Origin: Octopus vulgaris
Lineage: Eukaryota
DNA length: 64,000 nt
Assembly (NCBI GenBank): GCA_951406725.2
Contig: OX597828.1
Span: forward strand, 62,806,001-62,870,000
Reading direction: 5' to 3'
Under the pieces are notes generated by a model. The model did not search any database, had not been told where the DNA came from, and worked only from the letters and a program-made list of their open reading frames with translations. The position numbers and the translations under genes were made by a program. Within the stretch, counting starts at the first letter, position 1. Each line of letters begins with the position of its first letter. Below are positions 25,044 to 51,595 of this stretch, piece by piece.

Positions 25044-26176
25044 GCATACACACACACACACACACATATATATATATACATACGTATATATATACATACA
25101 TACATATACATACATACATACATATACATACATACATATATATACATACATACATATACACATACATATACACATACATACATATACAAATACATAACAT
25201 ACATATATATACATAACATACACATACATATACATATATATATACATACATATATATACATACATATATATACATATATATACATAGATATATATACATA
25301 CATATATATATACATACATATATATATACATACATATATATACATATATATATACATACATATACATACATATATACATACATATACATACATATATATA
25401 TACATACATACATATATATATACATACATATATATACATACATATATATACATACATATAAATACACATACATACATATATACATACATACATACATATA
25501 TATATACATACATACATATATATATACATACATATATACATACATATATATATATATACATACATATATATATACATACATACATACACATACATATATA
25601 TATATACATACATATATATATACATACATATATATATATACATACATACATATATATATATACATACATATATATATATACATACATATATATATACATA
25701 CATATATATATACATACATATATATATATATACATACATATATATATATATACATACATATATATATATATACATATATATATATATATATACATACATA
25801 TATATATACATACATATATATATATACATACATATATATACATACATATACATACATACATATATATACATACATATATATACATACATATATATACATA
25901 CATATATATACATACATACATATACATACATACATATATATACATACATATATATACATACATATATATACATATATATACATACATATATACATACATA
26001 TATACATACATATATATACATATATATATATACATATATATATATATACATATATACATATATACATATATACATATATATATACATATATATACATATA
26101 TATATATACATATATACATATATATACATATATATATATACATATATACATATATATACATACATATACATATATA
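25044..26176. repeat. (TA/TACA)n compound microsatellite block 1
   Basis: Read directly from the sequence. Confidence 0.97.
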
Positions 26177-29100
26177 TGATTGATTGATTGATTGATTGAT
26201 TCTAGTTTCAGCTTATGAGCTGTGGCCATGCTGGGGCACCGCCATTTGGTGTTGCTACTTGGTTTCACTTCATGGAGGCTTTCTAGCAACTGCTATTTGG
26301 TGCATGAGAGAGTTCGATGCAGCTGCCCTCATCTGCCCCTCCTGCCGTGAAGTTGGTTCATCTGGGACACCTGACAGGAAGAGATCCAGCTTCATTTTAA
26401 AGACATCTGTATCCACCCCATGCAGGTCTTTCAGGTTCTTCGGGAGGATATTGAAGAGCTGTGGGCCTCGGAAGCCCAGGCTATCACAGAATCTTGTCCT
26501 ACATCTTGATGGCAAGTTTGGAGTCCTAGGCACCACGCAGTGGCGCCCAGTTCTGGCATTTGCGTAACTCTCGATGCCAAAGTTCAGGACACTTCCCTCC
26601 AGGATCTTCCAGATGTATATTATGGCATATCTTTCCCGCCTACGCTCCAGGGAATATAATTTTAATCTCTGAAGTCTTTCCCAGTAGCTTACATTCTGCA
26701 TAGAGGCTATCTTCTTCGTGTAGCTTCGTTGGATTGCCTCAAGTTCTGTGATCAACTTGACACTGGATGGTGACCATAGCTGAGAGCAATAGTCAAAGTG
26801 GCTTAGGACAAGTGTCTTCCAGAGGACCATCATGGTTTCTTGTTCTCTTGTTCTAAAGGTTCTAAGAATCCAGCCAGCCAGCCGTCTGCATTTCATTGTC
26901 AGTTTAGCAACATGTACATGAAAGGTCGCGTCATCACTCATGTGAATACCCAGGTCACGCACTGATTGTGCCTCTGGGATTGCAATCCCTCCGGGTCCAG
27001 TGTATTCATTGGGTATTGCCTTCAGTTTTGCATGCTGATAGTATAAAGCTTGAAACTTTTCAGCATTGAACTGCATGCTATTCTTTTCAGCCCACTTGTA
27101 TATTTCGTCCAGCTCATATTGCAGGTGCTTAGTGTCTTCAGGGTTCTGTATTGCCTGTGAAACTTTTGTATCATCTGCATAACTTGTGATCGTGGCTCTC
27201 CGCGTGGCTGAGGGCATGTCTGAGAGGGCCATTATGAACAGTAGTGGTCCCAAAACAGTGCCCTGTGGAACACCGCTCACTATTTGCATGCTAATGGAAG
27301 TGGCCCCATTGGCTGCTACCACCTGACTTCTATTCTTCAGAAAGTCGTGAAGCCATTCTCCTAGTTTTCCAACTATGCCAAGATCACGCAGTTTGTGACA
27401 TATCATTCCATGATCGACTTTATCGAAGGCCTTTGCGAAGTCGAGATATATGACTTCCACATTTGAGTGGTTGAGCAGTTGTTTCAGCACCCAGTCATAG
27501 TGCTGCAGGAGCTGAGTTAAGCAGCTTCTTCCTGGTCGGAAACCATGTTGGGTGTCAGGCAGCAAGTCATTTTCTTCAAGGAAGGTGATTAGTTTCCTTC
27601 TGACTATTCGTTCCATGACCTTGCTGATGTGTGAGGTCAGAGACATAGGTCTGTAGTTCTTGGCCTCCGCTCTGCTACCTCCTTTATGAATAGGGCATAT
27701 TTTACCTTCCTTCAGTTTTCTTGGAAGTTTGCCAGCTGCAAGGAAGCTCTGAAAGAGGAACTGCAGTGGTCTTGCTAGGACTCTCTTACATACTTTTAGG
27801 AGGATTGCCGGGAATCCATCGGGGCCAATAGCTGAGTCTGTTTTTTATTTCATCTATAGCCTTTATTACAACGTCTTCCTTTATATCGATGTAATTTATC
27901 GTCGCCGCCTCTGATTCTATATCTGCAGTGGTAAAGAAGTCAGTTGGATTGCTGATTTGGAAATGCCCAAGGGGTGGAGTGAAAACACTCTTGAATTGTT
28001 CATTCAGTTTTTCACTTACCCTCATTGGTTTTCCTGTGAGTGTGCCATCCTTTTCAAGGAGTGGCCCTATCCTACAGTGCACCGTAGCTGTTTCTTTGGC
28101 ATACCTGTAGAAAGCTCTGGGGTTTGTTTTTATGTTGTCTATAGCCCAGGCTTCTTTGTCTGCTCTTTCCTTGTCATGGGAGAGTTGCAGACAATTTTCA
28201 ATTTCCAACAGTTTTATTTTCAGGCGGGACTTTTCACTGCTTTCAATTTGTTTGTTTAGGCGATTTGAAATTTTTGTACGCCGTCTCATTAAAATTTTCC
28301 TCTCTCTGGGGATTTTGTTCTTGTGTACAGTGGCCTTTCTCTCTGGGACACATTTGTAGCATATGGCTTGCATTACAGACATGAATTGTTGAAGTATCAT
28401 GTCGATTTCCGGCGAGGAGAGACATTCAGGCCAGTTTTGTTTGAGGATCTCTTTCTCAATTTGTTTCCAGTTTGCCTTATTGAAGTTCAAGCTGGAAAGA
28501 TTCTGAGGGTTTCTTGTAGGCTGCATGTCCGTGCTCTCTTTTGGCCCGTACATGGTCAGCTCTACCATGTTGTGATCCGAGAGTAGTGTCGGTGTCACTT
28601 TCACATTATGGATGAGATCCATATTATTTGTGAAGCAGAGATCCAGTGTGTTACCTGCTCTGGTTGGTTGGAGTATTACTTGCTCCATGTACAGGGTGTT
28701 GATGAGGTTCAGGAGGGACCTCGCCTGTCCTCGTTCACATCTTGTCATTCCTGGGAGAGAAAGGCCCTTGGGCCATCTGACATTGGGTAGATTGAAGTCT
28801 CCCATGAGAAGTACACTTATGTGTTGTTCTAATGTGGTTAGAACTTCTTCTATTTTTTTTTTTTTAAAAAGCAGTCCTCAAACTTGCCCATATGACTTGG
28901 GGCATCTGGAGGGCGATATGTAGCACACACAACTACATCAAGTTGCCTTATGTGTACAATTAGTGTGTCACACACCGAGTTTGAGTATGACAAGAGGACC
29001 TGGGGTGTGAGGTCCCCACGGATGTACATAGCAACTCCTCCATGACTCCTTTCTTTCCTGTCGGTCCGTAGTACAACATACTGTGGTATGTGTAATTCCG

Positions 29101-29340
29101 CATCTGCTATGTCCGGTTTCAGATGCGTTTCTGTGAGTGCTATGCATAAGGCTTGATTGCATGCGACAAAGTATCTCAGGAACGGGACTTTTGTCCTGTT
29201 ACTGTGTGTTAGTAGTCCTCTGATGTTCAGTAGGAGCATCGAGGTGAGGTGTATGCTGTTGCAGGCGGTGTCCACCCTGGGTCCATCTGCTGTGGCGGTC
29301 TTGTGAACTGTGGGCAGTTCCATCTGCGAGCCTGGAGTAA
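26177..29340 (-). mobile_element. LINE copy A: CR1/L2-group non-LTR retrotransposon (APE endonuclease + RT), frameshifted, (ATCA)n tail
   Basis: APE motifs [27 protein letters not shown] motifs LDFAKAFD, GVPQG, YADD. Frameshifts lie in A-runs at ~28860 and ~27843. Confidence 0.95.
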
Positions 29341-49800: not shown

Positions 49801-50003
49801 ACTAGATCTCTTCCTGTCAGGTGTCCCGGATGAACCAACTTCACGGCAGGAGGTGCAGATGAGGGCAGCTGCATCGAACTCTCTCATGCATGAGATGGCG
49901 TTTGCTAAAAAGCATCCGTGAGGTAAAATCGTGTAGCAAACCAAATGGCGGTGCCCCAGCATGGCCACAGCTCATTAGCTGAAACTGGAAAAATCAAAAT
50001 CAA
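46831..50003 (+). mobile_element. LINE copy D: same subfamily as A, opposite orientation, (AAAATC)2 tail
   Basis: APE and RT in three segments. Relative to copy A there is a 1-bp deletion at ~47813 and a 28-bp deletion at ~48893. Confidence 0.95.
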
Positions 50004-51595
50004 TACATATATATATACATACATAAATATATATATATACATACATACATATATATATACATACATACATATATATATATATACATACATACATATATAT
50101 ATACATACATACATATATATATACATACATACATACATACATACATACATACATAGATATATACATACATAGATATATATATATACATACATAGATATAT
50201 ACATACATAGATATATATATATACATACATATATATATACATACATATATACATACATATATAGATATATATATATACATACATATATATATACATACAT
50301 ATATACATACATATATATATACATACATATATATATACATACATATATATATACATACATATATATATACATACATATATATATACATACATATATATAT
50401 ACATACATATATATACATACATACATATACATACATATATATACATACATATATATACATACATATATATATATACATACATATATATATACATACATAT
50501 ATATATACATACATATATATATACATACATATATATATACATACATATATATATACATACATATATATATACATACATATATATATATACATACATACAT
50601 ATATACATACATACATATATATATACATACATATATATATACATACATATATATATATATACATACATATATATATACATACATATATATATACATACAT
50701 ACATATATACATACATATATATATACATACATACATATATACATACATACATATACACATACATACATACATACATATATATATATACATACATACATAT
50801 ATACATACATACATATACACATACATACATACATACATATATATATATACATACATACATATATATATACATACATACATATATACATACATACATACAT
50901 ACATACATATATATATACATACATACATACATACATATATATATACATACATACATACATATATACATACATACATATATACATACATACATATATATAT
51001 ACATACATACATACATACATACATATATACATACATACATATACATACATATATATATACATACATACATATATATATACATACATACATACATATATAT
51101 ATACATACATACATACATACATACATATATACATACATACATATATATATACATACATATATATATACATACATATATATATACATACATACATATATAT
51201 ATACATACATATATATATACATACATACATATATATATACATACATATATATATACATACATACACATATACATACATACATACACATATACATACATAC
51301 ATACACATATACATACATACATACACATATACATACATACATATACATACACATATACATACATACATATACACATATACATACACATATACATACATAC
51401 ATACACATATACATACATACATACACATATACATACATACATACATACATATATATATACATACATATATATATACATACATACATATATATATACATAC
51501 ATATATATATACATACATACATATATATATACATACATATATATATACATACATACATATATACATACATACATATATACATACACATACATAAT
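50004..51595. repeat. (TACA/TA)n microsatellite block 5
   Basis: Read directly from the sequence. Confidence 0.97.

Follow-up and report, generated by a model that had tools for sequence, protein, structure and literature searches.

Introduction

Several retrotransposons without long terminal repeats (non-LTR elements) insert into microsatellites, including Waldo at ACAY, Mino at AC, Kibi at TC, Koshi at TTC and Dong at TAA repeats, and the only TA target in the same list is that of the rice miniature inverted-repeat transposable element (MITE) Micron (PMC3812793; this and all other papers are cited from the portions available). Target-specific elements belong mostly to early-branching, Tx1 and R1 groups (PMC4640811), and the mechanism of microsatellite targeting has been called poorly understood (PMC3812793). 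In Octopus vulgaris, the recently active types of long interspersed nuclear element (LINE) are RTE, Dong-R4, CR1, L1-Tx1, Hero and R2, with CR1 represented by 13 families and 787 insertions (PMC13282606). The window described here is a 64,000-nucleotide stretch of the O. vulgaris genome (contig OX597828.1; G000:C15:62806001-62870000 of the 2.8-Gb assembly), in which four LINE copies, A to D, lie along a TA-rich microsatellite field at positions 25044-51595. All four are broken and TA-flanked, and they belong to a recently active family with two open reading frames (ORFs), carrying an apurinic endonuclease-type (APE) domain and a reverse transcriptase (RT). They probably entered by four independent insertions, because the family prefers (TA)n and the field offers thousands of such targets.

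Insertion into TA repeats across the genome

Flanks were scored in the best genome matches to the 3' kilobase of copy A (all 39 non-self matches), copy B (20 of 39) and copy C (20 of 39), each taken as a stretch of 7.5-8 kb. Ends that could not be placed (one on the 3' side, eight on the 5' side) were dropped, and the position of three 5' ends was assigned by eye. A TA-type flank was defined as a tract of at least 10 nt within 30 nt of the element end, and 40 stretches of 10 kb from 18 contigs (400 kb) served as the random background. TA-type tracts were found at 68 of 78 3' ends and 64 of 71 5' ends, and at both ends in 56 of 70 copies, compared with 6.8% of random positions on one side, 4.0% on both sides, and 13.7% of random TA dinucleotides on both sides. 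Mariner DNA transposons, used as a control, carried TA-type tracts on both sides at 9 of 26 loci (3 of 29 were skipped), significantly less often than the LINE (Fisher p = 5e-5). The original prediction, made from the letters of the window, had proposed that copies across the genome would be enriched for microsatellite flanks, and for these best-match copies the enrichment is confirmed.

The bases immediately past the LINE tail are almost fixed as ATAT or TATA. A target of (TA)n/(ACAT)n had been proposed; its TA-type part holds, but the junction motif is TA/ATAT and not ACAT. Short TA runs inside ordinary DNA also serve as insertion sites, and the total tract measures at most 30 nt in 13 of 70 copies, so that giant microsatellites, which the original prediction proposed as a safe harbour that the family uses and may help to grow, are not required. 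At the 5' truncation points, the first dinucleotide was TA or AT in 11 of 50 cases, a slight excess that was not used further.

These junctions can be accommodated in a scheme modelled on the usual course of target-primed reverse transcription. Nicks would be made by the APE domain at TpA steps where about three or more TA units follow one another. The tail repeat of the LINE RNA, ending in or running into AT/TA, would base-pair with one to three nucleotides at the nick and so provide the primer for reverse transcription. The truncated 5' end would be sealed into that tract as well, hiding any target-site duplication.

Comparison with other elements in the same genome

A young RTE-type LINE of the same genome (L240-L264), whose tail is (GAT)n and whose ORF2 contains an internal cysteine-rich insert, has a TA tract at 17 of 24 3' ends and 11 of 13 5' ends; one of its 25 copies was left out for lack of a tail, and two loci resemble duplicates. 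A young R4/Dong-like LINE (L265-L289), in contrast, shows TAA at 21 of 23 3' ends and a TA tract at none of the 23, and all six of its 5' ends with a repeat carry TAA, although part of the 3' TAA may be the element's own tail. In an L1/Tx1-like family, a TA tract was found at only 1 of 19 loci (19 of 30 had a shared end). The low values for the L1/Tx1-like and R4-like families argue against an assembly that attaches TA to LINE ends indiscriminately. Two clades have the bias in common, and it is most pronounced in young LINE copies. Elsewhere in the assembly (G000:C2:73046133-73068136), five L1/Tx1-like copies bearing zf-RVT follow one another on one strand at a spacing of about 5.4 kb, an arrangement that looks tandem.

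The original prediction had ascribed the preference to an endonuclease particular to this family. The strong TA bias of the family stands, but an enzyme of its own is just one possible explanation, since an unrelated RTE LINE has the same bias, and the ease of cutting and priming (TA)n may matter as much as a specialised enzyme. The bias could also be set by the DNA or chromatin, if (TA)n is fragile, unwound or poor in nucleosomes and is open to every LINE with a tail able to pair with AT/TA. This explanation is possible though clearly less probable than an insertion preference of the family: the equally biased RTE has a (GAT)n tail that ends in AT, and mariner is enriched as well (35% against 14% of TA dinucleotides), but the L1/Tx1-like and R4-like families remain unenriched for TA despite their AT-rich tails.

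Several observations weigh against a strict and family-specific preference. In 14 of 70 copies TA flanks were not present at both ends, and the scored copies, as top matches to three queries, are the youngest. The RTE LINE does not fall significantly below the family (p = 0.11), so that the bias is not family-specific, and RTE-type tails in the random sample are TA-flanked in only 3 of 10 cases. Short interspersed nuclear element (SINE)-like copies that share the LINE 3' end are TA-flanked in 4 of 25 cases against a background of 10%, fewer than a fixed enzyme preference would lead one to expect. Furthermore, 26 of the 70 copies sit in tracts longer than 300 nt, compared with about 12% expected from the number of TATATA sites (bootstrap 95% range 0-30%). 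Taken with the counts above, the (TA)n preference is strong, not strict.

The weak enrichment of the SINE-like elements, which are short and less costly, is what would be seen if insertion were near random and copies persisted only in TA fields, the kind of passive accumulation proposed for Drosophila Waldo-A/B (PMC3812793). Such accumulation is unlikely here, given that the bias already reaches 80% in copies about 99% identical, that the junction is phased to the base and short TA runs in ordinary DNA are also used, and that the array itself is intronic. In the random sample, elements with the LINE 3' motif were TA-flanked in 7 of 28 cases, three of which were LINE ends, and 9 more elements lacked an anchor. 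A control with young SINEs (24 of 29 loci) was dropped, because the query's own 3' flank had selected TATGC starts and several matches represented one locus.

An abundant SINE-like element (window positions ~3121-3520; also L160, L184 and L195) contains an internal (TA)n(TG)n and carries the 3' hairpin of subfamily C together with its GTAAAAGA tail. It may seed TA repeats, and it is presumably of tRNA origin.

Age and length of the repeat tracts

Whether the repeat preceded the LINE can be gauged from the strand on which its C or G variants lie. In 18 of 70 copies this polarity was assignable left and right of the insertion, and it agrees in 16 of those 18 (p = 0.003), while it is unrelated to the strand of the LINE (9 C to 7 G). 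Variant 10-mers common to both flanks are also more frequent than in shuffled pairs (0.27 against 0.14, with a shuffled maximum of 0.21). Repeat polarity across insertions thus favours a target older than the LINE, and the concordant polarity and shared 10-mers together uphold, on sequence grounds, the proposal that the repeat was a probable pre-existing target and not made by the LINE. A LINE-made tail was considered as the source of the repeat and was ruled out by the 5' flanks and the polarity. Sequencing reads were inspected at two loci, L039 and L031 (four runs each), and no joint skipping the element was among the best-supported ones, the 3' flank of L039 being repetitive; this result speaks for neither reading. 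The 5' junction of L039 is crossed by contigs of two studies, which extend 25 and 29 letters into the LINE, short of a 31-letter rule.

Such arrays are common. Another copy of the family lies within a few kilobases upstream in 20 of 79 copies, mostly across TA-rich spacers, and copies of at least 85% identity number 18 per 330 kb upstream of family copies compared with 2 per 400 kb of random DNA. TATATA sites number 3,413 in the array and 90 elsewhere in the window, while the random sample has 4,643 of them and holds 2-3 young copies. By hand arithmetic, 1.5-2.2 copies are expected in the array and fewer than 0.1 in the rest of the window, where 4 and 0 are observed; with this expectation, four copies are unremarkable (P ~0.06-0.18). 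The array is real, and its locus is an ordinary outcome, of the sort to be expected when insertions across the genome favour (TA)n.

The excess of copies in long tracts (37% against ~12%) means that site number alone may not suffice, and hints at either an extra preference for long tracts or growth after insertion. Growth is the basis of a further explanation, in which a short TA seed suffices and polymerase slippage during gap repair makes or enlarges the long tracts, so that the LINEs build the fields and with them new targets. Besides the 37% of young copies beside tracts over 300 nt, there is a precedent in the TAFTA DNA transposons of maize, whose TA targets of 6-8 bp grow up to (TA)50 per side (PMC5907723), and one seed expanding in both directions would also yield concordant polarity. 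The short tracts of 13 of the 70 young copies count against growth, as do the share of random DNA that already consists of (TA)4 or longer (3%) and the imprecision of the long-tract background, which comes from 4 of 40 loci in 400 kb. Creation of the fields by the LINEs is therefore a minority possibility, and insertion into (TA)n already in place is the reading preferred here.

Organisation of the array

The array begins with microsatellite block 1 (25044-26177), a (TA)n repeat with TACA variants that is C-rich on the plus strand. Copy A (26178-29341, minus strand) has an (AATC)6 tail at 26178-26201, is 5'-truncated just upstream of the APE domain, and has its ORF2 split over frames; it is 98.2% identical to the full-length copy L052, and seven bases at the 5' end of A have no match in the full-length copy. 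Beyond block 2 (29342-29984) lies copy B (29985-32909, minus strand), which is truncated inside APE so that it starts near ORF2 residue 45, is frameshifted and has a TTAAGGAT-type tail. It is 98.3% identical to the intact copy L206, and its 5' end has TATAT in common with the adjoining repeat. Block 3 (32910-37055, ~4.1 kb) is followed by a scaffold gap of 100 N (37056-37155), which hides the 5' side of copy C (37156-38728, plus strand). Copy C retains only the RT and 3' end, is frameshifted, ends in a (GTAAAAGA)n tail and is 99.8% identical to L230. Block 4 (38729-46831, ~8.1 kb) separates it from copy D (46832-50003, plus strand), which starts in the end of ORF1, is frameshifted and has an (AAAATC)n tail, and block 5 (50003-51595) closes the array.

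Each of the four copies is truncated at its 5' end and without an intact ORF1, and its ORF2 is broken across several frames; RVT_1 and Exo_endo_phos matches occur among the copies. Copies A and D are sisters at 94% identity, B is ~75% and C ~70% identical to A/D, and the predicted division into three subfamilies is fair, though the tail of D differs from that of A. Each copy has its own short tail, (AATC)n in A, (TTAAGGAT)n in B, (GTAAAAGA)n in C and (AAAATC)n in D, followed in every case by the TA repeat.

Most of the layout first described for the array was reproduced. All seven visible LINE junctions run into the repeat, the eighth being the scaffold gap; the other 37 kb of the window give only microsatellite-level matches to the LINE body; and the C-rich strand lies on plus in all five blocks whatever the strand of the LINE, with a G-type minority confined to positions 38729-40900 of block 4 (109 ACA, 42 TGT). 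The picture of elements nested in one field needs adjustment on two points: the four LINEs are strung along the repeat, but no element interrupts another, and the gap at the 5' side of copy C splits the five repeat blocks into two halves, whose continuity is presumed. Outside the array, a degenerate CATA/CA repeat of 425 bp (56680-57105) has no LINE inside.

The gap also raises the question of whether separate loci were joined through TA repeats during assembly, the lengths of TA tracts being hard to assemble. Such an artefact is improbable. The four copies are distinct, the longest exact stretch common to any of the five blocks is 117 nt, which gives no sign of block-to-block duplication, and the repeat has the same polarity on either side of the gap. 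On either side of the array the host exons keep their order and phase, and the genome-wide bias is independent of this locus.

Structure, activity and classification of the LINE family

Full-length copies of 5.3-5.7 kb have a 5' untranslated region of 1.4-1.8 kb, rich in AT and repeats; ORF1 encodes 296-317 aa and overlaps with ORF2, which encodes ~1000 aa. The intact ORF2 of L206 (1003 aa) matches Pfam Exo_endo_phos(_2) and RVT_1, and among the three Pfam families it matches in total at E<=1 there is no RNase H, C-terminal zinc finger or restriction-like endonuclease. A zf-RVT, CCHC or restriction-like endonuclease signature was also sought in the family and none was found, a CCHC pattern search being likewise negative. 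The catalytic motifs are retained in copies A, B and C. In ORF1, a CCCH finger falls below the Pfam cut-off (E ~1e-3), a Myb/SANT-like match is weak (E 0.016) and occurs in subfamily B only, and the structure predicted without an alignment has a mean predicted local distance difference test (pLDDT) score of 44.7; a Myb-like reading of ORF1 would draw on that weak Pfam match. The tail is a short tandem repeat and not poly(A), and the same 3' hairpin is predicted in all four array copies, with weak z-scores of -0.7 to -1.6.

ORF2 is open over at least 990 codons in 17 of the 36 copies long enough to span it, and the top genome matches are ~99% identical, which together indicate recent activity. 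Full-length B copies begin with AAGATGGCG, presumably a YY1-type motif, and A and C copies with a TTCCGG motif, with the TA repeat directly before (L206, L218, L052, L230). At the 5' junctions of L044, L205, L212, L222 and L232, short duplicated pieces of the LINE separate the truncation point from the TA tract, as expected from templated end joining.

The family likely belongs to the CR1 group. Elements of this group lack RNase H, a C-terminal zinc finger and a restriction-like endonuclease, and end in a short tandem-repeat tail with a 3' stem-loop instead of poly(A). A poly(A) tail is the mark of Zenon, and ORF1 is variable within the CR1 group (PMC13343379). The esterase-type ORF1 of canonical vertebrate CR1 is absent from the family; as ORF1 varies across the group, this excludes canonical vertebrate CR1 only. 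With the other active O. vulgaris LINE types excluded, CR1 is left by elimination, and the R1 clade would be excluded on domain content alone. A quick tree of 44 RT rows placed A, B and C within a 28-row clade (support 97), apart from the RTE and R4 rows of the same genome and from zf-RVT and RNase H rows, and it included no labelled CR1 or R1 row. Comparisons with Atlas and the PDB did not yield a clade label for the family. The CR1/L2 assignment of the original prediction thus agrees with domain content and elimination.

A broader and more speculative proposal, of low probability, is that octopus LINEs partition AT-only microsatellites, with the CR1-group and RTE elements having converged on (TA)n and the Dong-like element on (TAA)n. 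Insertions would lengthen the tracts, and this feedback would build fields and arrays, possibly steered by a Myb-like ORF1.

The host gene around the array

The array lies in a Rit-like Ras GTPase gene. Its coding exons 2-5 occupy ~14147-14203, 12258-12331, 11346-11537 and 10570-10812 of the window on the minus strand (within 10570-14203). Among 94 open frames from outside the array, two matched the Ras family, one of them with Rit1 as its best PDB match, and two further exons were located by motif. The first coding exon (L350) was found by its P-loop pattern on the same strand ~37 kb past the window end, and its splice phase fits exon 2. With exon 1 beyond the window end and exons 2-5 at 10570-14203, the array is intronic: judged from these exon models, the whole array and a neighbouring mariner lie inside the first coding intron, of ~87 kb. 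All five coding exons look open. The mariner DNA transposon (~1.3 kb, window positions ~23165-24457) has terminal inverted repeats and a TA duplication, with TATG-type repeats on both sides.

Comparison with known systems

Searches of the open full-text literature found no report of TA targeting by CR1 or octopus LINEs, although Repbase, Dfam, subscription journals or further supplements could hold one. The available portions of PMC13343379, PMC9115989, PMC10294476, PMC5786205, PMC3124438 and PMC4120745 do not report TA targeting by this family; the word 'microsatellite' is absent from the main text of PMC13343379 as available, the corresponding text of PMC13282606 contains no target-site analysis, and the family motifs are absent from the searched supplements of PMC13343379, PMC4120745, PMC10294476 and PMC13282606.

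Known targeting lineages are few, namely R1, Tx1 and those with restriction-enzyme-type endonucleases, and a family of high copy number and recent activity, with open ORF2 copies and a strong (TA)n bias, is of interest beside them. Together with one unrelated clade that has the bias and two that lack it, the family lends itself to comparisons of what determines the target: endonuclease, RNA tail or DNA structure. The TA bias is also one possible reason why octopus genomes contain LINE clusters and assembly gaps.

Among the CR1-group LINEs, the octopus element is conventional in its ORF2, with APE and RT in ~1000 aa, no RNase H and a short-repeat tail; unlike esterase-bearing CR1, it has an ORF1 in which a CCCH finger scores below threshold and the start is weakly Myb/SANT-like. 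Within octopus, RTE-2_OV is a LINE with a microsatellite 3' end whose clade differs from that of the array LINE (PMC9115989), and the RTE-type control, which shares the genome and the TA bias of the array LINE, is not equated with it. The plant elements SaTar, TAFTA, MuTAnT and Micron resemble the octopus array in forming linear, non-nested arrays joined by microsatellite at TA targets (PMC5907723, PMC4486113). They are, however, Mutator-like DNA transposons or MITEs, while the octopus element is an animal retrotransposon with APE and RT. Like Waldo, Mino, Kibi, Koshi and Dong, the octopus non-LTR LINE sits within one simple repeat on both sides (56 of 70 copies), and endonuclease cleavage, the presumed cause in those elements, may by analogy be the cause in octopus. 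It differs from them in its (TA)n target and in showing no R1, Tx1 or R4 domain signature. The octopus LINE behaves like Waldo, Mino or Dong, yet stands outside their clades.

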